Shown in pieces: positions 328-23,765 of a stretch of 33,776 nucleotides of DNA; the stretch's first letter is position 1; each line of letters begins with the position of its first letter. The stretch is from a candidate division WOR-3 bacterium. Lineage in GTDB: Bacteria > Hydrothermota > Tepidihabitantia > SM23-42. Below the pieces are notes generated by a model. It was not told where the DNA came from, ran no database searches, and saw only the letters and a program-made list of their open reading frames with translations. The stretch spans positions 1 to 33,776 of the forward strand of contig JBBIHN010000001.1 of assembly GCA_037446995.1 (NCBI GenBank), in the 5' to 3' direction. The position numbers and the translations under genes were made by a program.

Positions 328-1809
328 ATGATATTCACGAAACAAACATTGTTAATCATCGAGTTAGCAATTTCACTACGTTCTTCTATTGCTAATGGCG
401 ATGATAAAATTTGGTTTTTGGAAGGTGAAGAACTACAAATCAGAATGGACACCAAGGCGGTAATCGCTTGTTCGGCCCAGGTAGCATTTGGGATCCAGTC
501 TTATTATTCCTGGAGTGAAGCCTGGGGTGGTGGTTATTGGATAATAAGGACCAGCAGCTATGCTGAATTTTGTTTTGATCCTTATTGGACTGCGGATTAC
601 CCTAAGCCATATGCTTCTGGCACACTCATATTTTATTCCGTTTACTATGGCCGAGCAGACACGATTAAAATCGTCATGGTGCCTGCGGGAAAGCCTTATA
701 GTGATGGTGCGCAATGCGTGATGGTAGCCGATCCGGTTTTGCCTCAAACCGGGAATTTTCTAAATAGCCAATTTGGCGAAACCGACATTTTATTACCCTC
801 ACGCGGGCTAAATATCGAGTTTAAGCGAATTTATGCAAGCCAGGAAAGAGAAAATCCTGATACCTTAGGTAACTATGCCTGGATGCGACCTATCGGATCA
901 GGCTGGACACATTCTTATAATATTTCCTTAAAGGTAATCAATGACTACTATAATTCTCCCTACGATTGGTCCGTACTTCTCTATGATCACGACGGTAATG
1001 AAAAACTATTGTCTTGGACTGGTAGTGTTTATACTTCAGAAAAGGGTGAGCATCTTTTGTTACAAAGAACCGGCGCCTCACCCAATTTCCAATGGATTCT
1101 ATCCCGGGGCGACGGTTCTAAATGGTATTTCAGACAACGCTCGACACTGATTGGACGATTAGATAGCATCATTGATGCGAATGGTAACAAAATCACTTTA
1201 ACCTACACCGGCAACAACCTGACAAAAATAAAGGAACCGCTGGGCCGCGAAATAAATATTACATACTATCCAGGGAGTTCGTTAATAAAAAGGGTTTACG
1301 AACCACCGAATATGACCGATGGACTATATTGCGAATATTTTTACAAGAAAAACGGTGCTACCTATGATTTAACAAGGGTCGTAAGACACAATCCGGGAAC
1401 CAATGATTCAACCACGCTCAGTCGCTATTTCTACAATAATAAACATAATCTTCATACTTATATCTTTCCCACGGGGGAATACAATGAAAATAACGACACC
1501 TCTTGGCATTATAAAAAAGGTGATCGGGTGAATTGTTGGTATGATGACAAGAACCGGTGTATCTATCAAGAGGTCGTGCAGGCTGATGGCGATACTCTGT
1601 TGACCAATGACAGAGTCGTCTATCGGGCGCGCATGCAATATTTCATTAATGTTACTACTGGTTATCCAGATAGCACGAGAATATACTATTACGAAGATAC
1701 TACATACACTGGTGCTTTGAACCCTTTGACCGATCCTGCGCCAACACCACCAACATCAAATCATATTCGCAAAACGATTAGATTTAGTCAAAATGGAACC
1801 GTGGTCTGA
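328..1809 (+). CDS. Rhs/YD-repeat polymorphic-toxin protein, fragment 1 of 3 (unassigned N-terminal region plus first YD repeats); ends at an in-frame TGA
   Basis: 493-aa ORF. After about 135 unassigned residues comes DPVLPQTGNFLNSQFGETDILLPSRGLNIEFKRIYAS, the usual start of an Rhs repeat shell, then YD-type repeats (DANGNKITLTYTGNNLTKIKEPLGREINITYY). The stop TGA at 1807-1809 is in the same frame (position mod 3 = 1) as the next ORF, and the 11 codons between them are open. Confidence 0.8.
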   Translation: MIFTKQTLLIIELAISLRSSIANGDDKIWFLEGEELQIRMDTKAVIACSAQVAFGIQSYYSWSEAWGGGYWIIRTSSYAEFCFDPYWTADYPKPYASGTLIFYSVYYGRADTIKIVMVPAGKPYSDGAQCVMVADPVLPQTGNFLNSQFGETDILLPSRGLNIEFKRIYASQERENPDTLGNYAWMRPIGSGWTHSYNISLKVINDYYNSPYDWSVLLYDHDGNEKLLSWTGSVYTSEKGEHLLLQRTGASPNFQWILSRGDGSKWYFRQRSTLIGRLDSIIDANGNKITLTYTGNNLTKIKEPLGREINITYYPGSSLIKRVYEPPNMTDGLYCEYFYKKNGATYDLTRVVRHNPGTNDSTTLSRYFYNNKHNLHTYIFPTGEYNENNDTSWHYKKGDRVNCWYDDKNRCIYQEVVQADGDTLLTNDRVVYRARMQYFINVTTGYPDSTRIYYYEDTTYTGALNPLTDPAPTPPTSNHIRKTIRFSQNGTVV

Positions 1810-1842
1810 AAAAAGATTCATCAGAGCCCGAGCGGATTATCC

Positions 1843-2958
1843 ATGACTACCACTTATGGTACATACGACGCAGACTTTAATCCGGCCTCAATAACCGACC
1901 CGGATAATAAGACCACTTATTATACTTATCATTCCTACACCGATGCTAATGGCGGAACCAGATATCTCAATCGTCCTAAAAAGATCAAATATGCAAACGG
2001 GGATAGTCTTTTGTATTACTATTCGCCATACGCCAGTAATGCCCGCTTCTTTTTGGTTGATTCGTCCCGCGATGAATTGAATCGTAAGACCAACTATTTC
2101 TATAATACCCAAGGTAATCTTGATTCCACCCAGTATTACCAGAGAATTTTGGCGGATGGTGGTGCCGGTACGCCCCAGAATGTCAATACGAAATTTACCC
2201 ATAATATTAAAGGTAATCTCACCGAAGTCCGAGACCCGGAATTACACAGGAACTATTTTCATTACATACCCAACGACACCGGTGCTTATCTGACTGAATC
2301 CCGAATTGACATTGGCAACAACGGCGAAGACAATCAAGATCTGGTTACCCAGTATCGTTTTAACGCAAATCGTGGTACCTTAGATACGCTCATCTATTAT
2401 CACGATTTTCCGGCTAACCCCATAAAAGTGAATTATTACTACGACCTCTTAGCCCGGCTTTATAAGATCGCCTATCCAGATAACACTAACGAAGAATATG
2501 TCTATGATAAAAGGGGCAATTTTTTGGAGAAGAAGATTACGAAGACCGGCACCGCTTACTATAAAATTCAGTACGAATACGATGCCCGTAACCATCTGAA
2601 AAAGGTGAAAGAGTTCAAAGATCTTGTGAACTATCCCACAACTTATGACAGCACCTTATATGTTTATAACCTCAATGATGGATTGACCGAGTTTTCCAAT
2701 GCCAATGATGGTGCAACCAATACGACAATTCTCTATGACTATGTTGCGAACCGACTCTACCGCACTCGGTATGCAGATAATAATAAAGATAGTCTTGGTT
2801 ATTATTTTTCTGGTTATCTAAAATTCAAGAAGGATCGCAGGGGTGAAGTAATTGAATACAAATACGATGACCGCTGGCGTTTGACCAAGAAACGGTATTT
2901 TGACGACTGGACAAGTTATCCAAATAGTCCGACCGATTCAGTGGTTTTTCTGGCTTGA
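1843..2958 (+). CDS. Rhs/YD-repeat protein, fragment 2 of 3 (central YD repeats)
   Basis: 371-aa ORF full of YD repeats (YGTYDADFNPASITDPDNKTTYYTY, YFYNTQGNLDST, YVYDKRGNFLEK, YEYDARNHLKKV, YKYDDRWRLTKK). It shares a frame with 328..1809. It overlaps the next fragment, which lies in the +1 frame. Confidence 0.8.
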   Translation: MTTTYGTYDADFNPASITDPDNKTTYYTYHSYTDANGGTRYLNRPKKIKYANGDSLLYYYSPYASNARFFLVDSSRDELNRKTNYFYNTQGNLDSTQYYQRILADGGAGTPQNVNTKFTHNIKGNLTEVRDPELHRNYFHYIPNDTGAYLTESRIDIGNNGEDNQDLVTQYRFNANRGTLDTLIYYHDFPANPIKVNYYYDLLARLYKIAYPDNTNEEYVYDKRGNFLEKKITKTGTAYYKIQYEYDARNHLKKVKEFKDLVNYPTTYDSTLYVYNLNDGLTEFSNANDGATNTTILYDYVANRLYRTRYADNNKDSLGYYFSGYLKFKKDRRGEVIEYKYDDRWRLTKKRYFDDWTSYPNSPTDSVVFLA

Positions 2959-4714
2959 TAAGGTCGGTAATCTCGATTCCCTGCTTGAGAAAAATGGTAA
3001 AATCAAATATGATTATGATGGATTAGACAGGTTGTTTGAACTCAATGCCTTTAATTCAAGGATGGTCAAGTATCTATATGATAAGGTCTCAAATCGTAAG
3101 AAGATGAAGGTCTGTAAGGCAACAGACACGACCACTATATATCTTGAGCAAACCTATCCATCTTATGACGAGGGCAATCGTTTATTAATAACGATTGTTT
3201 CACCGGATACTTTCAACTTTGCTTACTGGGATCCTGGTCCAATAAAAGAGATTGAATATCCATACGACTTGAAAGAGCAGTATTGGTTAACCAATCGGAA
3301 TTTCATTGATTCCATGCGCACCTATAACCCAGCAACACCACCAGCAAGACCAACTGTTCTGTTCAGATTTGCCTATCGTTATAATGCCCTAACTGACCGT
3401 GATAGTATGGCTATAAAGATCACACGGCCTTTGACTGCTCCACTTACCGGCACGATAAGATATTCGCATGACAACCTGAGACGGCTAAGGGATTCAAAGT
3501 CTTACTTTTCAGGCATTGAGAGCATCAATTATACCTATGACCCGGTGGGTAATCGTAAGACAAGAATTAAGGGTGGTACAACGACCAAGTGTACTTATGA
3601 CATTCAAAATAATCGTCTTATGCAGACAGAAGATCCAATCCTCCACACCTATCACTATGATGCAAGTGGCAATATCACCTTTATGGATTCGACATCAAGG
3701 AGTTATCGCCGCTACTACTGGGATTATGAGAATCGTTTGGTTGCGGCCAAGACCTGGGCAATTGAGCCGGGGGATAGTGCTTATCATGTATATTGTGCAT
3801 TAGGTAAACGAATTGCCAAATTTTTCTGGGACAATTCAGCAAGCATTACTGATACCACAAGCTACTGTTACGATGGTATGTTCGTGATTTGTGAGTTTGG
3901 TGGGCATGATAATCTCAAGAATAAATATGTTTATGCAAATGGTTTATTGCTTGAAAAAATTGATTCGCTGGGCAATAAGTATTTTTATCATCACGATGCC
4001 CTGGGTTCGACAATGGGATTGACCGATGTTAACAAGAATGTTGTCCAATCCTATTTCTATGATGATTTTGGTAATTTGAGTGGTAGTTGGGGAACAGTGG
4101 CAAATAACTACCTTTACACCGGGCAGGAATACGACAGTTCGCCGTTGTGGTTGTATAATCTAAGAGCAAGGTATTATGCCACGGACATCGGTAGGTTTAT
4201 TAGTGAGGATCCGGAGATTGGGTTTATCTACATGCCGCAACAACGCAACTTATATCCTTATGTTTGGAATATGCCTATCACCTTTACGGATCCGCTTGGA
4301 TTGTTTACCGGCTGTAAAGTAATCACAAAATATCCTGTTAAAACCGAGAACGGTTTGGTAAGTGAGGAGGAAAAGACACATTGGTGGGAGTTTCGACGAG
4401 CTTATACCACAGGATTTAATCAATATCTCCCTATTCCTTTCTTTTGGGTACACTGTGAGTGGTCAAGAATGGCCGAAATAACCAGAATTTACCGGGAATT
4501 GACTATTTGGTCATATGTTCTGAAATGTTGGGAAGAATGTAATCCTCCGGTTGTTAAGGTTTACGATGTCGTAATTCTCGGTCCATTAAGCACAGAAATT
4601 TTGCGGCGACTTAGCGAAGCAGAAAAAGTACTCGGTCCTTATAATATCATTTCCGAATCACCAGCATTTAAACTCAAATGGGAGATCATATGTTTAGAAG
4701 CTGGTCCACCTTAA
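2900..4714 (+). CDS. Rhs/YD-repeat protein, fragment 3 of 3: last YD repeats, Rhs core end (DPLGL) and a variable C-terminal toxin domain
   Basis: 604-aa ORF (TTG start in the track; the frame is open from 2885). It has YD repeats (YTYDPVGNRKTR, YHYDASGNITF) and the conserved Rhs core end: YFYHHDALGSTMGLTD ... YLYTGQEYD ... YNLRARYYATDIGRFISEDP ... PYVWNMPITFTDPLGL. Confidence 0.85.
   Translation: MTTGQVIQIVRPIQWFFWLDKVGNLDSLLEKNGKIKYDYDGLDRLFELNAFNSRMVKYLYDKVSNRKKMKVCKATDTTTIYLEQTYPSYDEGNRLLITIVSPDTFNFAYWDPGPIKEIEYPYDLKEQYWLTNRNFIDSMRTYNPATPPARPTVLFRFAYRYNALTDRDSMAIKITRPLTAPLTGTIRYSHDNLRRLRDSKSYFSGIESINYTYDPVGNRKTRIKGGTTTKCTYDIQNNRLMQTEDPILHTYHYDASGNITFMDSTSRSYRRYYWDYENRLVAAKTWAIEPGDSAYHVYCALGKRIAKFFWDNSASITDTTSYCYDGMFVICEFGGHDNLKNKYVYANGLLLEKIDSLGNKYFYHHDALGSTMGLTDVNKNVVQSYFYDDFGNLSGSWGTVANNYLYTGQEYDSSPLWLYNLRARYYATDIGRFISEDPEIGFIYMPQQRNLYPYVWNMPITFTDPLGLFTGCKVITKYPVKTENGLVSEEEKTHWWEFRRAYTTGFNQYLPIPFFWVHCEWSRMAEITRIYRELTIWSYVLKCWEECNPPVVKVYDVVILGPLSTEILRRLSEAEKVLGPYNIISESPAFKLKWEIICLEAGPP
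4304..4711 (+). other. Variable C-terminal (putative toxin) domain of the Rhs protein, 136 aa, family not recognised
   Basis: This is the sequence immediately after the DPLGL codons (4289-4303): FTGCKVITKYPVKTENGLVSEEEKTHWWEF...VHCEWSRMAEITRIYRELTIWSYVLKCWEEC...LEAGPP. In Rhs proteins the segment after PxxxxDPxGL is the cleaved toxin. I see no motif of a known toxin family. Confidence 0.6.
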
Positions 4715-5262
4715 TAATTAAGCTGGTTACTATAGCATATATTCGCTGGATTGTTTCATTAAGCATTATAGTTTCATTGAATACTGGATGTCAAAAGTGC
4801 GTATGGACGGCATATTACTATGATAGTCTCAGATTAGATTTGCTATTTGATCCACATCAACGGCTTGTAGAATTTGCATTATTAAAACCCCATAATCTAA
4901 TAGAGATTAAAGGAGACATACAGAAATTCGATAGCTTAGTTGTACCTGGACTTGGCGCACTTGGGTTGACATTCAATATATCTTTAGAACAAGCTAAAAA
5001 ATTACTGGGTTTGCCCAAGGAATATAGCTATCTTAATCTTGATACATGTGTAATTACAATGGCAAGTTGGAAAATTGGTAATTCAGATCATATCGATCTT
5101 TATTTCAAAAATGATTCTCTAGAAAGAATAAAAAGTAATACAAAGAGGGCGAAATTACCTAAAGATATTTTCGTCGGTACTCCAATGAAGACTGTAATTT
5201 TACTCTATGGAAAACCTTCTCTAATTTCTTCAACAAAAGAGCCACCAGTCGGCGTCGAATGA
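4678..5262 (+). CDS. Candidate cognate immunity protein; hydrophobic N-terminus suggests a membrane-anchored or lipoprotein-like product
   Basis: 194-aa ORF that overlaps the rhs stop by 37 nt. An alternative ATG at 4690 has GGAG at 4681-4684 five nt upstream and would overlap by 25 nt. The N-terminus reads STLIIKLVTIAYIRWIVSLSIIVSLNTGC. Its position directly 3' of a polymorphic toxin is the classical immunity slot. It is as AT-rich as the rhs gene. Confidence 0.55.
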   Translation: MGDHMFRSWSTLIIKLVTIAYIRWIVSLSIIVSLNTGCQKCVWTAYYYDSLRLDLLFDPHQRLVEFALLKPHNLIEIKGDIQKFDSLVVPGLGALGLTFNISLEQAKKLLGLPKEYSYLNLDTCVITMASWKIGNSDHIDLYFKNDSLERIKSNTKRAKLPKDIFVGTPMKTVILLYGKPSLISSTKEPPVGVE

Positions 5263-5407
5263 ACTGAAATATTTTTAATTTCTCGTAAATGTGATTTTGA
5301 GATAGAAGGTTTTATAGGAGACACTGTTCTGCTTCAGATGAATCTTGACAAACGGTCATATGGGAATAAGGTGGAAGAAAGGAGTCAGAAATGGATGAGA
5401 AGCGGCG

Positions 5408-6307
5408 GTGTTTCAGCTTGGTGTGAGTGCGGGTAAGTTTTACGATTGGTACCGGCGGTATGGGTATTCGAATCAGCGGAACCGGCAGGTGCCCAGGATC
5501 CATTGGCTTTTGTCCTGGGAGCGGGCGGCGATTGAAGACTATTATCGGCAACACGAGCATGAACGCGAGGGTTATCGCCGGTTGTGTTATCGGATGATTG
5601 ATGAGGATGTGGTGTATGCGAGTCCATCATCAGTGTATCGGGTATTGAAAGCGGCACATCTTCTGAGCCGATTCAAGCCGGGCAAAGAAAGCGCCCGCGG
5701 TGATGGTTATGATCAGCCGACCCGGCCGCATCAGCAGAGGCATATTGATATATCCTACGTCAACGTGCGAGGCAGTTTTCTTTTTCTTATTGCGATTATT
5801 GACGGTTATTCCCGCTATATTGTGGCCTATGATTTGCGGGCAAGCATGGAGGCGACGTATGTCGGGATCGTGTTGCAGCGGGCGCGCGAGCGGTTTCCCA
5901 ATGAGCATGCCCAGGTAATCTCGGATCATGGCCGTCAGTTCATCTCCAAAGAATTCAACAGTTACATCCGGAATATTGGGTTTAGCCATACCTTGATCAC
6001 GGTTGGATATCCTGAAAGCAACGGCAAAATAGAACGTTTTTTTGGGACCGCAAAAAGAGAATGCATTCGACGGAACAGTTTTCTTTCGATCCGCGATGCC
6101 CGAAAGATCATTGATCGGTTCATTGAGCACTATAACAATAAAAGGCTGCACAGTGCGATTGGCTATGTGGCACCATTGGATATATTATTGGGTCGTAGGG
6201 AAGAAATCTTAAAAGATCGTGATGAAAAACTGAGAAAAGCCCGTGAAGAAAGGATCAAATCTTATAATCAAAATTCCACCTTATTGCATGAGGCCAAAGT
6301 GTCATGA
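5408..6307 (+). CDS. DDE (rve, integrase-core) transposase, IS3/IS481-like; possibly frameshifted at its extreme 5' end
   Basis: 299-aa ORF. It starts with an HTH remnant (LGVSAGKFYDWYRRYG). A D-D-E triad is recognisable: HIDISYV ... VISDHGRQF ... PESNGKIERFF. The tail reads YNNKRLHSAIGYVAP. The track start is a GTG without a Shine-Dalgarno. A good GGAG (5381-5384) plus ATG (5391) lies in another frame and runs only 11 codons (MDEKRRCFSLV). Confidence 0.85.
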   Translation: MFQLGVSAGKFYDWYRRYGYSNQRNRQVPRIHWLLSWERAAIEDYYRQHEHEREGYRRLCYRMIDEDVVYASPSSVYRVLKAAHLLSRFKPGKESARGDGYDQPTRPHQQRHIDISYVNVRGSFLFLIAIIDGYSRYIVAYDLRASMEATYVGIVLQRARERFPNEHAQVISDHGRQFISKEFNSYIRNIGFSHTLITVGYPESNGKIERFFGTAKRECIRRNSFLSIRDARKIIDRFIEHYNNKRLHSAIGYVAPLDILLGRREEILKDRDEKLRKAREERIKSYNQNSTLLHEAKVS

Positions 6308-6327: not shown

Positions 6328-6424
6328 TTGTCATTGCGAGCCGCCGCTGCGTTTGGCGGTGAAGCAATCTCAGATTTGCTCGCAAAATAAAGAGATTGCC
6401 GCGCCCTTCTGGCTCGCAATGACA
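6328..6424. repeat. Nested inverted-repeat (hairpin-forming) element downstream of the transposase
   Basis: The outer arms are a perfect 14-bp repeat: TGTCATTGCGAGCC (6329-6342) and GGCTCGCAATGACA (6411-6424). The inner arms are 8 bp: GCAATCTC (6364-6371) and GAGATTGC (6392-6399). There is also a CCGCC...GGCGG mini-hairpin at 6341-6359 and a third GCTCGCAA copy at 6378-6385. Confidence 0.6.
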
Positions 6425-11801: not shown

Positions 11802-12626
11802 TTACGGCGTTTTGCAACTCAGACCAAGATCATGACCGACATCTTCAATGATCTTCTCGTCGATAAGTTCTTTCTTCAATAAGAACCCCTCGAGCAAGGC
11901 ATTATCGCAGACCGCATTTATAGTTCGTGGTATCCCTCGCGTATAGACGAAGATCCTCTGAAGCGCCTCGCGGCTAAAAAGGGGACGGGTGCAGCCGGCA
12001 ACCTTGAGGCGATGGATGATGTAGTTGGCTGCGGCCTTTTCATCGAGCGCTTCAAGCACGCAGCGCACCGCCACGCGCTGATACAACGGCGGATCAAGCT
12101 TCAGATAATCTTCCATCTCCGGCAATCCGAACAGTATGAAATTCAGGAGTTTTCCCCGTTCGGATTCAAGGTTCAGCAAACCCCTTATCTCTTCCATTAT
12201 CTCCTTGCGTTGCAACATATTTGCTTCGTCGATTAGGATAACCACTTTCTTCTTCTTGCCGGTCAAATCCAGCAGGCGATGATAAACGGCGGTTATGATA
12301 TCGATTTTGTTCTCGGAATCCATCGGCGTCTCGAGCATCAACGCGATCTTTTTCAAAAACCACAGAGAAGTTATTTCCGAATGAATGATCACCAGCAAAG
12401 TCGCCTCAATACCAAGCGCGATAAACTGATCCAGAAGACGCCGCGAAAGAGTAGTCTTTCCGGTGCCGATATCCCCGATCAGAAGGCCAAGTCCTTTTTC
12501 AGTCTCGACCGAATGCAGCATCTTAACGAGCGCTTTGGAGTGTTGTGGTGAATCATACCAGAACTTCTCATCGGTAGTGAAACTGAATGGATGTTCTCTT
12601 AATTTATAGAAAGATTCGTAGCCCAT
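11802..12626 (-). CDS. ExeA/GspA (MshM)-like AAA ATPase, paralog 1
   Basis: 274 aa. The N-terminus FYKLREHPFSFTTDEKFWYDSPQHSKAL matches the ExeA pattern (FFGL..PF......f.y.s..H..AL). Walker A is GDIGTGKTT and Walker B is VVILIDEAN. It starts 4 nt after the upstream TPR gene. Confidence 0.85.
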   Translation of the reverse strand: MGYESFYKLREHPFSFTTDEKFWYDSPQHSKALVKMLHSVETEKGLGLLIGDIGTGKTTLSRRLLDQFIALGIEATLLVIIHSEITSLWFLKKIALMLETPMDSENKIDIITAVYHRLLDLTGKKKKVVILIDEANMLQRKEIMEEIRGLLNLESERGKLLNFILFGLPEMEDYLKLDPPLYQRVAVRCVLEALDEKAAANYIIHRLKVAGCTRPLFSREALQRIFVYTRGIPRTINAVCDNALLEGFLLKKELIDEKIIEDVGHDLGLSCKTP

Positions 12627-12630
12627 TTAT

Positions 12631-14436
12631 CTAAAGGTAAGTTATCTTCGATTTCTTAACCTTCACACTTTCCGCCGGCGGTGCAGGTGACGGAGGCGGC
12701 TTCGATGATTGATCGACTTTGCCCTCCCTTTGAAGTTGCGCAGAGAAACGGTTTTTGATCTCGTTTATTTTTCTGGTCAGCTCGGGAACCGTTTTATCGA
12801 TCTTGTAGGCATTCATATACGATCTCAGGGCTTCCTTGAGATTTCTCTTTTTTTCAAAACAATTGCCGAGCAAAAAATGAATGCCGAAATACTCGCTGGC
12901 CGGCCGGCCCGTTATCCCGAGACCATCGTTGAGAACACGCAGGCCTTCGTCAACCTTGTCTTTTTCGAGAAAACACGAGCCGATCATCTCCATTGCCTTG
13001 AGTCTCAGATCCTGGTCCTTCGCCGCCATCTCGAATTCCTCGATCGCCTCCTGGAACAAGCCCATTCCCTTATAGGCAACTCCGAGATCATAGCGCGACT
13101 TGAAATCGCCCTCGCCGATCGATTCAAATACTTCACGCCGGAACTGCGAGATCAATCCGTCGATGCTTTGCAGGTTCTCCGACTTCTGATCCTGTACGAT
13201 CTCGGTACGTAAGACCTCGCCAAGATCGATGAAATCCTTTGGTTGCTCAAAGGCCGCGATCATCTCCTGGGCAATCTGGTTCGCCGGCTCAATGCTCAAA
13301 ACCTTGCGATAAACTTCACTGGCCTCGCTTTTTGCGTCACGGCGACTAAGCGATTCGGCAAGGTTCAGCAAGGCATCAACCTGCAGGGCATTATCGTCCA
13401 TGGCACCTGCGATCTCAACCATAAGCTGACGTGACTTAAGATCAAAAGGACGAAGATCGGCAATGCGTTTGTTAAGTTCGAGAGACTTTCCGTATTCTCG
13501 GCTCTTAAGTGCTTCGGCGGCCGCGCCCCGGAAGCAGTCGATCGCCTCATCTTCATGACCGAGGTTCAAGTATACATCTCCCAACTCAACTGCCCTATCG
13601 ATTTCTAATTGCGCTTTGGCCACCGGTTCTGCGGCCGGTTCTTCGACCGGCCCGACTTCATCCTTCAGCAACTCGGCAACCTCCGGCGAGACCAGATCGT
13701 CAATCTTTTTGCATTCGGCTTTGTCGCCGACTTCCGGCTCGGCTTCTTCAACCGCCCCGGCCGACGCCTTAGCTTCAACCACTATTTCGGGCTTTACCGA
13801 CACCGGCTCCGGGATGACTTCCTCTTTCTCCTCGACGACTTCCTTCTCAATTTCGACCGTTTCCGGCGTCTTAGAGACCAGGGTTTCGCGGAACTTCTCC
13901 TGTTGGGTTTCTATTTCCTGTGCCTCTTTGCGTAATTCCTTACCTTCTTCTTTCTTGCCAACCTTCTCATAGATCGCCGAGATCGTTTCCAGAATCTTAG
14001 GATTGTTAGGCACCAGTTCTTTGATTATATTGTAAGCGCGCAGGGCGTCTTCCATGGCGTTATCTTTCATCTTACGCTCGGCGTATTCAAGATAGCAGCT
14101 TACCGCTTCGCCTTTTTGGTCGAGTTCTTTGTGGAGATCACCGAGCAGCTCGTAGACATTTGCACGTTCTTTGTTGAGACGCAGGATCTTCTTGCACAAT
14201 GCGACCGCGTTCGGATAATAGGTCTCTTCCCGGAACACGCGGGCGCCTTTCTCATAGACATCAAGCGCCTCTTCTTTTCGGTTGACTTTTATGTAGAGAT
14301 CGCCCAGTTTGTTGAACAGCGAACCATCGGTGGTGAATTCAGCTAAAGATTTTTCTAGTTCTTCGATTGCCTTTCTTAGATCGCCTTTTGCTTCATACTC
14401 GGCGACTTTTCTCTTTACTTCACCGGCTTCCGGCAT
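12631..14436 (-). CDS. Long signal-less TPR protein, paralog 1 (TPR, acidic/Pro-rich linker, TPR, basic tail)
   Basis: 601 aa. It has TPR-like helical repeats at both ends and a Glu/Pro/Val-rich linker at about aa 165-278. There is no N-terminal signal peptide (MPEAGEVKRKVAEYE). Its ATG overlaps the TAA of the upstream ATPase (TAATG at 14434-14438). Confidence 0.8.
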   Translation of the reverse strand: MPEAGEVKRKVAEYEAKGDLRKAIEELEKSLAEFTTDGSLFNKLGDLYIKVNRKEEALDVYEKGARVFREETYYPNAVALCKKILRLNKERANVYELLGDLHKELDQKGEAVSCYLEYAERKMKDNAMEDALRAYNIIKELVPNNPKILETISAIYEKVGKKEEGKELRKEAQEIETQQEKFRETLVSKTPETVEIEKEVVEEKEEVIPEPVSVKPEIVVEAKASAGAVEEAEPEVGDKAECKKIDDLVSPEVAELLKDEVGPVEEPAAEPVAKAQLEIDRAVELGDVYLNLGHEDEAIDCFRGAAAEALKSREYGKSLELNKRIADLRPFDLKSRQLMVEIAGAMDDNALQVDALLNLAESLSRRDAKSEASEVYRKVLSIEPANQIAQEMIAAFEQPKDFIDLGEVLRTEIVQDQKSENLQSIDGLISQFRREVFESIGEGDFKSRYDLGVAYKGMGLFQEAIEEFEMAAKDQDLRLKAMEMIGSCFLEKDKVDEGLRVLNDGLGITGRPASEYFGIHFLLGNCFEKKRNLKEALRSYMNAYKIDKTVPELTRKINEIKNRFSAQLQREGKVDQSSKPPPSPAPPAESVKVKKSKITYL

Positions 14437-15257
14437 TATTCAAATTTCAAACCAAAATTGGATACAACTTTTTCGATTATTGATTCGTCGATATTCTGTT
14501 TACGTTGAAAATAGCCTTCGAGCAAAGCATTGTCGCAGGTTATATTTACGAGCCTGGGCCGGCCGTCGGCATAACGACATACCAAATCGACCGCCCTGGG
14601 AGAGAATAACTCGCGGGCTGCGCCGGCGATCGTCAATCGATGGTTGATATAAGACCTAATCGTATCGCTGCCCATCGGCTTCAACTTAACCTTCACCGCA
14701 ATACGCTGGTATAGAGCGCGATTGGTGGATAAGAAGCTCTCCAGGTCCGGTAAACCGCTGAGCACGAACGAGATCAACCGTGTATCGGCGATTTCGAGAT
14801 TGAGCAATCCCCTCATCTCCTCAAGGATCTCGGGACTTCGGATCTTATTTGCCTCGTCAATGATGATCACCGTTTTCTCATTGCGTCGGTATATCTCATT
14901 GAGCCTCTGCGATATCCGGTTGATAACCTCAGTAGTCGAACTCCCGATATCCCGCGCGCCGATCAGGTTCGCGATTCGCGAAAAAAGCCATCCGGGAGCA
15001 AATTCAGAGTGAGTAAGAACAATCAAACCCACCTGATAGTTTTCGGCGCCATACAGCTCACTTAGTATCTTTCTCACCAATGTCGTCTTACCCGTGCCGA
15101 TTTCACCTAACAGCACGGCCATACCTCTGGTGCCGCGGGCCGCGTGGATCAGATATTCCCTCGCCAGAGCGTGCTGCGGTGAGTTGAAGTAGAATTTCGG
15201 GTCAGGATGATTGGTAAAAGGCTCGAATTTCAAACCATAGAATTCCTGATATCCCAC
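14436..15257 (-). CDS. ExeA/GspA (MshM)-like AAA ATPase, paralog 2
   Basis: 273 aa with FYGLKFEPFTNHPDPKFYFNSPQHALA. Walker A is GEIGTGKTT and Walker B is TVIIIDEAN. It is collinear with paralog 1 over its full length. Confidence 0.85.
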   Translation of the reverse strand: MGYQEFYGLKFEPFTNHPDPKFYFNSPQHALAREYLIHAARGTRGMAVLLGEIGTGKTTLVRKILSELYGAENYQVGLIVLTHSEFAPGWLFSRIANLIGARDIGSSTTEVINRISQRLNEIYRRNEKTVIIIDEANKIRSPEILEEMRGLLNLEIADTRLISFVLSGLPDLESFLSTNRALYQRIAVKVKLKPMGSDTIRSYINHRLTIAGAARELFSPRAVDLVCRYADGRPRLVNITCDNALLEGYFQRKQNIDESIIEKVVSNFGLKFE

Positions 15258-15270
15258 TTAACCTCCCATT

Positions 15271-17211
15271 TTAGAGAAAAGCAATATTTTCATCGCTCTT
15301 GTCTTCAATACCACCGAAATCTTCAGGAATGTTCTCAACTCTTCTTGTTTCGCGACCTACTTTCTCGACCGGCACGGTGAAATCCTCGATCAACGGCGGC
15401 TTGTCATCTGCTTCTGACTGGAATCCGTCAAAAGACGGAACTCGTTCGGGTTGCGGATCCATGTTCGCAGAAACCGCCGGTACTGGCTCGGGCGAAAATT
15501 CCCTGGGCGATTCTAACAATTGAGGTGGCTCACGATGTTTCTCCTCGAATGCCGGCTCCGGTTCGACCGGTGGCGTTTCTTTGTCGACGGTAACTTCAGT
15601 CCTTCTTGCCTCCTCAAGGACCGGCTCTTTACCGCCGAGCAGCGAGTAGATCTCGCGCACGTCCTTGTAATTGGGGTTGAGACTGATGATCCGTTCGATC
15701 TCGCGCATCGCATTGTCAAAATCTCCCATCCCCTCATACGCCGCCGCCAGCAAATAGCGCAGTTCCGTTTTTTTATCTTCGCTCAAATCTTCATATAACA
15801 ATGACGGCGCGATCGCTTTCATCGCTTCATTGTAGCGTCCAAGCCGGATTAGCGATGAACCATATATTTCAAGGGAATGCGGCCATGTATGCTTCAACTG
15901 CTTCAGATCGGCGACATAAGTAAGAGCGGCTTCGTAGAGCTGTGATTCCAGCGCCAGCCTGGCAGCGTGCAGGAGTTTGCCCTGATCCTCTTCACGCCAT
16001 TGAATCTTGCTGCGGAAATCATCAAATTCCTTTGCCAACTCAAAGCTCGGCGCCGGCGCAGTCTCGGCCTGATCGAGCAGGAACTCAATATCTGCGATCT
16101 GACCTTCCAGTTGTGGTATATCCGTTCCTTGATCGGTCGGCGCTTCATCAGGCATCGTGGCATCAGCGGCTGCCTTGAAACCTTCGATATCCTTTCCAAG
16201 ATCTTCAAAGATCTCCATTCCCTGAATATCACTGCCCGGCATAAGATCAGCCGTCGACGGCGGTGAGGCATCCGCAACAACGGGGTCATGTTCAATCACT
16301 GATTCAACATCGTCAGCCGGTTTCCTGTCACCCGCCGGCGGCGCGCTTTCGAGAACCGCACGGTCTTCGACTGGTTTCGGTTCCGGCTTCGGTGCCGCCG
16401 GTACCGGAGCCCCACCCTGCAACTCGTTGATTTTATTGATCGCCTCCAGATTACTGGGGTCAATCTCGGCGATTCGATTGAGAACCTTAATCGCCTCATC
16501 GATCTCGCCGCCAGCGATCAAATCCTGCACCGCCTTATTGAACTCAACAACCGCTTCGTCCTTGGAACCGATCTCATAAAGTAAATTACCCAACTCAATG
16601 CGACTCTTTGGATCAAGCTCTTCGCCGCCATCAGCGTTCGGCATCAAACCATTGACCTCATTGATCAGATTCTCATCCTGCGCTTCTTCGGCCATGTTTT
16701 TCAACCGGACCAGTTCTTCGTAAGCAATGACTCCCTGATTCAAAGAATACAAAATTTTGATGAAGGATAGACGCAGGGCGAGATTATTCGGCTGCATATC
16801 GATCACTTTGCGAAGACCGCCGATAAGAATGCTGTCTTTCTTGTTGTCTAATGCCCAGGAACAGGACTCCAGCATTTTCAATATCGCATGATTGGGCAAC
16901 CCATACAGATGGTAGAGGTCGGCAAGACGCGAGAATACTTCTTCTTTGGTACAATCAATCTTGACAATCTTTTCAAGACACATTATCGCATCGGCGTATT
17001 GGTTCATATCCCCGTACTTCGTGCAGGCGCTTTCATAACGCTGGATCGCCTCAGTATTATTGCCCAGTTTTAGTGCAATGTCGCCGGAAAGCTCAAGCGC
17101 CTTCGCATGATTCGGATTCTCGTTCAAAATGCGTCGCAAAATGATCTGAGCTTTTTCGATCTTGCCTTCGAGAATGTATTCGCGGCTTCTGTCGAGCACG
17201 TCTACTTCCAT
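15271..17211 (-). CDS. Long signal-less TPR protein, paralog 2 (TPR, Pro/Asp/Ala-rich linker, TPR, acidic disordered tail)
   Basis: 646 aa with an N-terminal TPR block, a low-complexity linker at about aa 264-392 (GGAPVPAAPKPEPKPVEDR...), a second TPR block, and a roughly 100-aa Pro/Glu-rich tail ending in ENIAFL. There is no signal peptide. Confidence 0.8.
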   Translation of the reverse strand: MEVDVLDRSREYILEGKIEKAQIILRRILNENPNHAKALELSGDIALKLGNNTEAIQRYESACTKYGDMNQYADAIMCLEKIVKIDCTKEEVFSRLADLYHLYGLPNHAILKMLESCSWALDNKKDSILIGGLRKVIDMQPNNLALRLSFIKILYSLNQGVIAYEELVRLKNMAEEAQDENLINEVNGLMPNADGGEELDPKSRIELGNLLYEIGSKDEAVVEFNKAVQDLIAGGEIDEAIKVLNRIAEIDPSNLEAINKINELQGGAPVPAAPKPEPKPVEDRAVLESAPPAGDRKPADDVESVIEHDPVVADASPPSTADLMPGSDIQGMEIFEDLGKDIEGFKAAADATMPDEAPTDQGTDIPQLEGQIADIEFLLDQAETAPAPSFELAKEFDDFRSKIQWREEDQGKLLHAARLALESQLYEAALTYVADLKQLKHTWPHSLEIYGSSLIRLGRYNEAMKAIAPSLLYEDLSEDKKTELRYLLAAAYEGMGDFDNAMREIERIISLNPNYKDVREIYSLLGGKEPVLEEARRTEVTVDKETPPVEPEPAFEEKHREPPQLLESPREFSPEPVPAVSANMDPQPERVPSFDGFQSEADDKPPLIEDFTVPVEKVGRETRRVENIPEDFGGIEDKSDENIAFL

Positions 17212-22724: not shown

Positions 22725-22748
22725 GGGGTCAAATCTGGACATTGGACA
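22725..22748 (+). repeat. 24-bp repeat, copy B (perfect inverted partner of copy C)
   Basis: GGGGTCAAATCTGGACATTGGACA. It covers the stop codon of the Y1 transposase-like gene. Confidence 0.9.
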
Positions 22749-23727
22749 AGCACGCCGTGACAGTCTTAACAATCTCAGTATATCGCTGTGATAGCCTTCT
22801 GTCTTTCTTGAGATGCCTCCATAGTCGGCTCCGTAATTTGCTTACAGCATAATAATCGACACCCAGATATTCACCTATCTTGTCTTGTTTCATCTCACAG
22901 TAGCGATATAGAATATCACTTAATATCCCGCGCACAATGCCATTTCCCCGGCGGATCCGAATGTCATCACGGTGAAGACCAAAAGCATCGCCTACACAAG
23001 CTACAACTATTTCAGGATCGACTTTGCTCGCTATCATCCTGCGATACTCGGGTTGCTCGCGTACCGAGCCTTTCTCCAGGAATCTTTTTCTAACAAGATC
23101 TACAAATGCGTCGTTTCCCAAGATGTTCTGATAATGAACTGCTTCAAATGGATTATCGAGATCGTGCTGCAACCCATCCAGAAGGAAATCTCTGTAGCCA
23201 CATCGATCACCTGCCAACCTCAATACTAAATCATAATGAACAAAATCAATTTTCAGTTTTTCTCGCAAATATCCGGGCAGACTGCTCCATTTGAAACGGT
23301 TGAGATATACCACCTTCCTATGGCACGGCAGGTCAGCAAACTCATTTCTACGCACGGGATTCAAATGCACATACCGCGACAGCTCAAGGAGATAGTTGTC
23401 AGCATCAACTAATATGGCTTTGTATCGCCCTTGATACAGATGGCCACATGTCTTATGATGGAAATTAAACCACCCTGTATAGCTGATGTTGAAACGCCGC
23501 ATGAATTCACTAAGATTCGCCTTTACCGTCTGCACACCCAGATGAAAATGATTGTCCATCAGAACGTAGAAGTGCAAAACAACACTGTAAATGCCTAAGG
23601 ACTCACGCAGCACTTTCAGAAACCAATGTCGATCATCATCATCCAAAAAAATTTTTTGACGTCTGTTGCCACGACAGAATACGTGATAGAACGCATCTGG
23701 GAATTGAATTCTCAATGGTCGTGCCAT
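22729..23727 (-). CDS. HUH/Y1 (IS200/RayT-like, PF01797-type) transposase-like protein with a C-terminal DnaA-C-like HTH domain
   Basis: MARPLRIQFPDAFYHVFCRGNRRQKIF ... LMDNHFHLGV (HUH motif) ... GHLYQGRYKAILV (catalytic Tyr motif). The C-terminus IVRGILSDILYRYCEMKQDKIGEYLGVDYYAVSKLRSRL resembles the DnaA domain IV HTH. The start is probably the ATG at 23727; the track's TTG at 23748 lies inside the repeat. Confidence 0.85.
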   Translation of the reverse strand: MARPLRIQFPDAFYHVFCRGNRRQKIFLDDDDRHWFLKVLRESLGIYSVVLHFYVLMDNHFHLGVQTVKANLSEFMRRFNISYTGWFNFHHKTCGHLYQGRYKAILVDADNYLLELSRYVHLNPVRRNEFADLPCHRKVVYLNRFKWSSLPGYLREKLKIDFVHYDLVLRLAGDRCGYRDFLLDGLQHDLDNPFEAVHYQNILGNDAFVDLVRKRFLEKGSVREQPEYRRMIASKVDPEIVVACVGDAFGLHRDDIRIRRGNGIVRGILSDILYRYCEMKQDKIGEYLGVDYYAVSKLRSRLWRHLKKDRRLSQRYTEIVKTVTACLSNVQI

Positions 23728-23741
23728 ATAAATTTCATAAA

Positions 23742-23765
23742 TGTCCAATGTCCAGATTTGACCCC
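23742..23765 (-). repeat. 24-bp repeat, copy C (inverted)
   Basis: TGTCCAATGTCCAGATTTGACCCC is the exact reverse complement of copy B. It ends 1 nt before the comM stop codon. Confidence 0.9.

Follow-up and report, generated by a model that had tools for sequence, protein, structure and literature searches.

Where in its target cell does an Rhs toxin act when the protein encoded directly behind it, its presumed immunity protein, looks exported? The question is raised by an Rhs locus close to the start of contig JBBIHN010000001.1 (assembly GCA_037446995.1) of a candidate division WOR-3 bacterium, of which we analyzed positions 1 to 33,776 of the forward strand (hereafter the window, 33,776 nucleotides (nt) in length). 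The locus ends in a C-terminal toxin domain (CT) of 136 amino acids (aa) and an overlapping open reading frame (ORF) that is the candidate immunity gene (Table 1). Rhs and other polymorphic toxins are a main source of new antibacterial activities, and unassigned Rhs tips are common. To our knowledge, almost all characterized tips are nucleases, ADP-ribosyltransferases or deaminases of the cytoplasm, and their immunity proteins are cytoplasmic too. We are confident, on the sequence comparisons reported below, that the window locus is a toxin/immunity pair. That the CT acts in the envelope and is neutralized by an exported immunity protein seems to us somewhat better than an even bet. The architecture is that of a textbook Rhs polymorphic toxin, and this type of system is already known. 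New, as judged from sequence, are the CT family and the anchored partner, itself an orphan, together with the fact that exported partners, PD40 propellers among them, consistently accompany the family.

The gene carries RHS/YD repeats (Pfam PF05593), a DUF6531 domain (PF20148) and the Rhs-associated core TIGR03696 with its DPxGL end, which together place it in the Rhs family. Within the 604-aa ORF that includes the toxin domain (2900-4714), the NCBIfam match to TIGR03696 covers aa 387-468 (E = 2.2e-16) and terminates exactly at DPLGL, which bears out the core terminus at 4289-4303 proposed in an earlier note on this DNA. In characterized Rhs proteins, the DPxGL end of the core is a site of aspartyl autoproteolysis.

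The CT that follows could not be assigned to any family. A Pfam search with the 136 residues returned nothing at E ≤ 0.05 (the best match, at 0.066, was noise), NCBIfam, PHROGs and PADLOC gave no match, and searches of PDB sequences with CT profiles returned noise only. Among 5.8 billion proteins there were two close homologues of the CT. One (P0001) is a partial Rhs protein with a 79% identical CT from a metagenome-assembled genome of candidate division WOR-3 (Caldifarciminota), and the other (P0002) is an 81-aa fragment encoded on the Logan contig L001. A scan of genome contigs with the CT found nothing. The single match from the metagenome scan (L003) lies in a frame that does not code for protein, on a contig with high guanine-plus-cytosine (GC) content, and was dismissed as due to chance. 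AlphaFold2 reached a predicted local distance difference test score (pLDDT) of 45.5 on a three-sequence multiple sequence alignment (MSA). On a 10-sequence family MSA the best model reached 60.8 and the other four about 43, with a topology that differed from that of the three-sequence run. Started from the better model, Foldseek found nothing assignable in the PDB (best E 0.3, TM-score below 0.3). Because of the low pLDDT, the disagreeing topologies and the empty Foldseek search, the fold of the CT is not assignable. To the extent of these sequence searches the CT lies outside every described family. The earlier note had likewise found it unassignable, and the Foldseek search that it named as a check, run here with a low-confidence model against the PDB, gave no match.

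The CT and the ORF behind it recur together. Both are present, in this order and overlapping, on L001, which comes from another sample and is about 80% identical in nucleotide sequence. L001 keeps the 25-nt overlap, the position of the start codon and the Shine-Dalgarno-like element. In the window, the ORF overlaps the toxin gene by 25 nt if it starts at ATG 4690 and by 37 nt if it starts at ATG 4678; these lengths, and the GGAG placed 5 nt upstream of the second start, are as the earlier note had given them. We compared the window with L001 by the Nei-Gojobori method. The ratio of nonsynonymous to synonymous substitution rates (dN/dS) was 0.07 for the CT (dS = 1.09), and the mature part of the partner gave 0.08. 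This strong purifying selection indicates that the CT and partner ORFs are real genes. The N-terminal hydrophobic stretch of the partner showed a dN/dS of about 1, with its hydrophobicity kept and an in-frame one-codon indel, and thus appears to evolve like an export signal, fast but still hydrophobic. A CT directly followed by a partner that travels with it was the arrangement expected of a toxin/immunity pair, and the search for it in other genomes, named earlier as a check, found it in the diverged L001. At positions 1-20 of L001, two in-frame stops lie just upstream of the core tail (...YFYDDFGNL). L001 is probably an orphan cassette rather than part of a full Rhs gene, although an artefact of the contig end is possible.

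The downstream ORF could also encode, instead of an immunity protein, some exported protein unrelated to the toxin, or else a chaperone or another accessory factor. It has no homologue of known function and is an orphan apart from L001 among the 5.8 billion proteins. We nevertheless regard this as highly improbable, because the translationally coupled overlap is kept in the diverged L001, the partner shares the low GC content of the CT, and it is placed and arranged as Rhs immunity genes are (PMC3482391).

The immunity candidate has exactly one transmembrane (TM)-like segment (mean Kyte-Doolittle hydropathy 2.03), and its remainder is soluble; the long N-terminal hydrophobic segment described earlier was thus found again, at aa 12-30. 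We take it to be a signal peptide or a signal anchor, as its composition suggests, and do not claim that the protein is a lipoprotein. The lipobox consensus is [LVI][ASTVI][GAS]C after the h-region. At this place the window reads S-L-N-T-G-C34, with a non-canonical residue at -3, and L001 reads L-G-V-K-C, with Lys at -1. No family match was found for the immunity candidate in Pfam, NCBIfam or PDB sequences, and its only homologue among the 5.8 billion proteins was the partial ORF in L001. Neither member of the pair therefore matches any family searched, in keeping with the earlier suggestion that both may represent undescribed families. The best profile lead for the partner was DUF3862 (E = 0.21), whose score of 12 bits falls short of the 25-bit cut-off. 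The partner contains two LLG-x-P-type stretches (GLTFNISLEQAKKLLGLPKE and VGTPMKTVILLYGKPS), the first followed by a W...hDLYF...L pattern. They had been noted before as two G-x-...LLG-x-P motifs, and as a repeat they do not hold up, since the internal repeat test was not significant (p about 0.2). A BamE/DUF3862-like identity was dropped on account of the sub-threshold DUF3862 score and the non-significant repeat.

Although unassigned to described families, as the earlier note had it, the CT is not alone: a sparse family assembles around it. The exhaustive profile search returned 1010 matches, most of them simply Rhs cores, as 60 core residues had entered the profile with the P0001 row; the useful matches were those whose alignment ran into the CT. 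Family membership was tested on CT-only sequences (the part after DPxGL), with about 125 other Rhs CTs from the match list as controls. Members share a Cys 2-4 residues past the cleavage motif, a Trp, the motif h-C-x-W-x-[KR], a C-x3-C about 22 residues later, and a late Cys. A profile built without the window clade scored the window CT at 26 bits and unrelated CTs at 6 bits at most. When each member was left out in turn, the window CT scored 22.4 bits (best unrelated CT 4.9), P0006 20.7 (8.6), P0004 26.2 (6.7), P0114 26.4 (7.4) and P0007 22.4 (6.1). These five core members, counting the window clade as one, thus reach 20.7-26.4 bits compared to 8.6 or less in the controls. P0007, which had been chosen without regard to its CT, gives the most independent support. 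P0057 (9.1 bits, best unrelated 7.2), P0054 (7.7 and 7.0) and P0015 (9.5 and 4.7) are marginal. Taken together, the scores indicate that a Cys-rich Rhs-CT family around the window CT is probable.

This family is a handful of metagenomic sequences with CTs of about 90-150 aa, each with 5-7 Cys and many Trp. No acidic or His residue is conserved throughout. Pfam searches with the family members gave no match, and a word-indexed search with the family alignment added no new members. An L,D-peptidase of the YkuD type, with its catalytic motif H...[ST]xGC[IV]R, finds no support, as there is no PF03734 match and no conserved His upstream of h-C-x-W-x-[KR]. A Cys right after DPxGL was dropped as a family marker, because 44 of the 133 Rhs CTs in the exhaustive-search list have one within five residues after DPxG[L]; an N-terminal Cys seems to be common on released Rhs toxins and may have a general role there. 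On contig L005 (41-696), P0004 (159 aa) and the next ORF, of 58 aa, look like one frameshifted CT: a stretch of the short ORF (...LFDKDFCEKQ) matches one near the C-terminus of P0114 (...PFDKEWCNNL).

The conserved cysteines could also suggest a zinc enzyme. According to this explanation, the CT would act in the cytoplasm with a site formed by C4 or H50 together with C51, C75 and C79, either as a divergent deaminase-like HxE...Cx3C centre or as a zinc-ribbon nuclease, and the partner would be tethered to the inner membrane facing the cytoplasm. The window clade indeed has an invariant H50-C51-E52 followed, after 22 aa, by C75-x3-C79, a spacing that recalls the HxE...PCxxC of deaminases. Cys4 sites are common in cytoplasmic toxins, and three basic residues after the hydrophobic segment in L001 make its topology ambiguous. 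However, the relatives keep C51 and W53 and replace both H50 (by Y, L, D or I) and E52 (by H, Y, I, V or L), and no deaminase or nuclease was matched in Pfam even at E ≤ 1. In addition, the lipoprotein-like PD40 propellers that accompany some relatives (see below) are extracytoplasmic by nature, and Cx3C, which would set both Cys on the same side of a helix, is found more typically in disulfides carried by helices than in zinc knuckles. We consider a cytoplasmic zinc enzyme unlikely for these reasons. Its deaminase version (H50-C51-E52...C75-x3-C79) was rejected, as the His and Glu vary in the relatives and no profile matches. The earlier statement that the CT has no canonical deaminase HxE...PCxxC therefore stands: the look-alike is not conserved, its Cx3C has no preceding Pro, and it has no Pfam match.

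Evidence on the compartment comes from the proteins encoded behind the relatives. In all seven relatives placed on contigs, the downstream gene encodes a protein with a signal, a lipoprotein or a membrane protein. P0004 (on L005), P0114 (L006) and P0007 (L007) are each followed by a lipoprotein-like PD40 beta-propeller, and these three propellers are mutually related (E = 6e-20 and 8e-10). Behind P0057 (L008) lies a 233-aa protein with an ...ALGC lipobox, behind P0054 (L009) a 231-aa polytopic membrane protein, and behind each of P0006 (L004) and P0015 (L012) a partial protein that has a TM segment at its N-terminus. When the window and L001 are counted as well, exported or membrane partners are found in nine of nine loci, and they belong to at least four unrelated types. 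Zhang et al. (2012) found immunity proteins to be overwhelmingly cytoplasmic, the secreted or TM ones accompanying an envelope-acting L,D-peptidase toxin, and their catalogue lists a single lipoprotein immunity family and no beta-propeller immunity proteins (PMC3482391). The earlier note had suggested, from the partner's N-terminus, that the toxin's target lies in the envelope; the seven relatives lend this suggestion support at the level of sequence.

Several of these contigs carry more than one cassette. Arrays of orphan Rhs-CT/immunity cassettes occur on L004, L009, L011 and L008, which is typical Rhs biology. L004 (315-1557) encodes a PLA2-like CT with a 153-aa polytopic membrane protein, and L009 (457-7526) a second, different CT accompanied by a membrane protein of 183 aa; TIR and HEPN_AbiU2 genes lie upstream on L009.

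An envelope target could also mean that a non-enzymatic toxin like the Rhs toxin Tse5-CT inserts into or perturbs the inner membrane, with the partner blocking it at the membrane. Tse5 and Tsi5 provide a precedent for an Rhs toxin whose immunity protein sits in the membrane (PMC9637101), the partner of P0054 is polytopic, two relatives have partners with N-terminal TM segments, and no residue of catalytic type is conserved across the family. The CT itself, however, is soluble and highly charged. It has no TM segment and no TM-like or long amphipathic hydrophobic stretch (its maximum 19-residue Kyte-Doolittle mean is 1.27, and those of the relatives are mostly 0.2-0.7). A Tse5-like pore is disfavored because the CT has no hydrophobic helices. 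The soluble lipoprotein-like propellers found with three relatives also suit a soluble periplasmic toxin better. We hold membrane damage of this kind to be very unlikely.

We favor, as stated, an envelope-acting CT met by an exported immunity protein, a target compartment that we infer because the immunity candidate looks exported. Cleavage at DPLGL would free the CT as a polypeptide of its own, and the CT would act in the envelope (periplasm) of the target cell, not in its cytoplasm. There, the conserved cysteines would form disulfides, with the C-x3-C on a helix pinned to the strand cysteine and to the N-terminal cysteine. In the producer, the CT would be inert while reduced and encapsulated. 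The partner, Sec-exported and either membrane-tethered or lipoprotein-like, would bind the incoming toxin directly in the periplasm. Since no acid or His is conserved family-wide, binding or a non-classical mechanism is favored over a standard hydrolase.

A number of points weigh against this reading. The CT-only scores are weak in absolute terms (11-26 bits) and not significant database-wide, part of the relatives were chosen because their alignment extended into the CT, and three of them (P0057, P0054 and P0015) are marginal members. How much the seven of seven exported partners say depends on how frequent membrane immunity proteins are in these uncultivated lineages overall, and the unrelated cassettes on L004 and L009 likewise have membrane partners. 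The non-canonical lipobox and the positive charges after the segment in L001 make the topology of the immunity candidate uncertain. The four conserved Cys could bind zinc instead of forming disulfides. The structural models of the CT are of low confidence and conflict in topology, with nothing found by Foldseek, and the carrier gene is interrupted.

A wider reading, which we consider distinctly unlikely, is that with the CT begins a hitherto unrecognized superfamily of toxins that are small, locked by disulfides and non-hydrolytic. Uncultivated diderms (WOR-3/Caldifarciminota-like) would deliver them into the periplasm by way of Rhs cages, and they would act by binding a component of the envelope instead of by catalysis. 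The varied immunity proteins would then be decoys or sequestering partners, each an unrelated solution: PD40/TolB-like lipoprotein propellers, helical lipoproteins, polytopic membrane proteins, and the anchored alpha/beta protein of the window. The PD40 propellers would hint at Tol-Pal as the target.

The interruption of the carrier, overlooked in the earlier note together with the flanking transposase gene, raises the question of whether the toxin is still in use. Three ORFs (493, 371 and 604 aa) stand in place of one Rhs gene of about 1470 aa. The ORF at 2900..4714 exists as described before, but it is only the last third of this broken gene, and an in-frame TGA (1807-1809) and a frameshift (2945-2949) prevent any single intact ORF from spanning cage and CT. 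TGA is an ordinary stop in the host genome, where nrdR, ftsH and other genes terminate with it. The independent Logan assembly L013 (run SRR11582151) is 100% identical to the window over 1842-3518, frameshift included. An A6 run lies directly 3' of the TGA, and the frameshift falls in a T5 run. As a consequence of the interrupted scaffold, the toxin module may no longer be deliverable in this genome.

The locus may thus be decaying, a pseudogene carrier beside a transposase whose toxin is no longer delivered here. The three ORFs, the normal use of TGA as a stop, the frameshift reproduced in L013, the transposase ORF that begins 146 nt past the immunity-candidate stop, and the location in a low-GC island (34-41% against about 50%) all speak for decay. 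On the other hand, the CT and immunity frames are intact and under strong purifying selection relative to L001, although this reflects history rather than the present, and Rhs-CT cassettes that are orphaned or truncated are often retained as a reservoir for recombination. The immunity gene is also useful alone. Moreover, the confirmation by L013 covers the frameshift and not the stop at 1807, and both lesions lie beside homopolymers, so that sequencing error is possible. We give decay a little less than an even chance. Decay would bear on what the locus does at present rather than on what kind of module it is, and an envelope-acting toxin would be consistent with it.

Table 1. Position of the Rhs fragments, toxin domain, candidate immunity gene and adjacent transposase ORF in the window
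Feature	Position	Strand	Description
Rhs fragment 1	328..1809	+	493 aa; DUF6531 and RHS repeat; ends at in-frame premature TGA 1807-1809
Rhs fragment 2	1843..2958	+	371 aa; frame shared with fragment 1; ends past +1 frameshift in T5 run 2945-2949
Rhs fragment 3	2900..4303	+	YD repeats and Rhs-associated core TIGR03696 (nt about 4058-4303); DPLGL end 4289-4303
CT (toxin domain)	4304..4714	+	136 aa (4304-4711) and TAA stop, directly after DPLGL
CT residue C4	4313-4315		Family-conserved
CT residue W28			Family-conserved
CT residue C51	4451-4468		Family-conserved; position given for the whole motif H-C-E-W-S-R
CT residues C75 and C79	4526-4540		Family-conserved; C75-W-E-E-C79
CT residue C130	4691-4693		Family-conserved
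GGAG Shine-Dalgarno-like element	4681..4684	+	5 nt before ATG 4690; GGAGG in L001
Candidate immunity gene	4690..5262	+	190 aa from ATG 4690; 194 aa from ATG 4678
N-terminal hydrophobic segment, immunity candidate	4723..4779	+	aa 12-30, LVTIAYIRWIVSLSIIVSL, then N-T-G-C34
rve-family (DDE) transposase ORF	5408..6307	+	299 aa, GTG start; edge of low-GC Rhs island

The composition of the region sets the module apart from its surroundings. GC content is 34-37% in the CT and its partner, about 41% in the Rhs body and about 50% in the flanking genome, and it steps from about 35% to about 48% at the transposase region (5263-6307). In this region we found no terminal inverted repeats of an insertion sequence (IS) around the transposase ORF, which has no clear N-terminal helix-turn-helix or start. 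The interval that separates the transposase gene from nrdR contains a perfect inverted repeat of 14 nt at 6329-6342 and 6411-6424 (TGTCATTGCGAGCC and GGCTCGCAATGACA) with a spacer of 68 nt. The flank is housekeeping DNA and encodes LpxA, FabZ, an outer-membrane beta-barrel, FtsH, NrdD and NrdR. In our comparison the window corresponded to NCBI assembly GCA_964634725.1. The host is a diderm, to judge by the genes for LpxA, FabZ and the beta-barrel. No type VI secretion system (T6SS), PAAR or SpvB genes were seen within the window, at whose edge the Rhs gene sits.

Further along the window, two successive pairs of genes occupy 11802-17211 on the reverse strand, each an AAA_22 ATPase (about 273 aa) followed by a TPR protein (about 600-645 aa), and they look like a tandem duplication of a two-gene module. 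An ORF of 339 aa at 22729-23748 (reverse strand) contains an IS200-like Y1 transposase domain (PF01797, aa 19-127). It is far longer than a typical IS200 TnpA and may encode a RAYT-like or fused protein.

If the partners prove consistently exported and the toxin, once oxidatively folded, works in the periplasm, the known range of targets of Rhs cargo would be wider. Such a family would also provide a small scaffold for finding a new vulnerability of the envelope, and a case in which to study what keeps a toxin inert inside its producer while Rhs encapsulates it. The value of the finding is limited in that the family is rare and this copy sits in a damaged gene and is probably crippled.

Compared to the Rhs/YD-repeat polymorphic toxins as a class (PMC3482391), the locus has the same DUF6531, RHS repeats and TIGR03696 core with DPLGL, a variable CT of lower GC content than the core, an overlapping partner gene, and relatives in orphan cassette arrays. 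It differs from them in that the CT and the immunity candidate match no catalogued Tox, Ntox or Imm family, that the immunity candidate appears exported or anchored where most are cytoplasmic, and that the carrier in the window is interrupted. The deaminase-superfamily toxins (HxE...PCxxC) share with the window clade the spacing of H-C-E, 22 aa and C-W-E-E-C, but the His and Glu vary in the relatives, there is no Pro, the second motif is Cx3C, no profile matches, and the partners are exported. The immunity candidate in turn resembles small lipoprotein domains of the BamE/SmpA_OmlA and DUF3862 types in its G-x-T...LLG-x-P helix-like motifs and as a putatively exported protein; it differs in having only a sub-threshold DUF3862 match and no significant repeat.

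The proposed mode of action has its closest parallels in two other systems. Mariano et al. (2018) showed that T6SS effectors acting in the periplasm can need DsbA of the target cell (PMC5792426). The likeness that we propose to Ssp2 and Ssp4 of Serratia marcescens (PMC5792426) is a toxin that is harmless in the reducing cytoplasm of the producer and active when oxidized in the periplasm, where its immunity protein resides. Ssp2 and Ssp4 differ as stand-alone T6SS cargo and have no sequence kinship to the CT, whose dependence on disulfides is suggested by the conserved Cys only, and no T6SS gene was seen within the window. Tse5 and Tsi5 of P. aeruginosa (PMC9637101, PMC10684867) would share with the locus delivery by Rhs, a target in the envelope and an immunity protein located at the membrane, features that on the window side are read from sequence. 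They part ways in the proteins themselves: Tse5-CT is hydrophobic, with TM and amphipathic helices, whereas the window CT is soluble, rich in acidic and basic residues, and rich in Cys and Trp, and Tsi5 has two TM helices, whereas the window partner has one N-terminal segment followed by a domain of about 155 aa.

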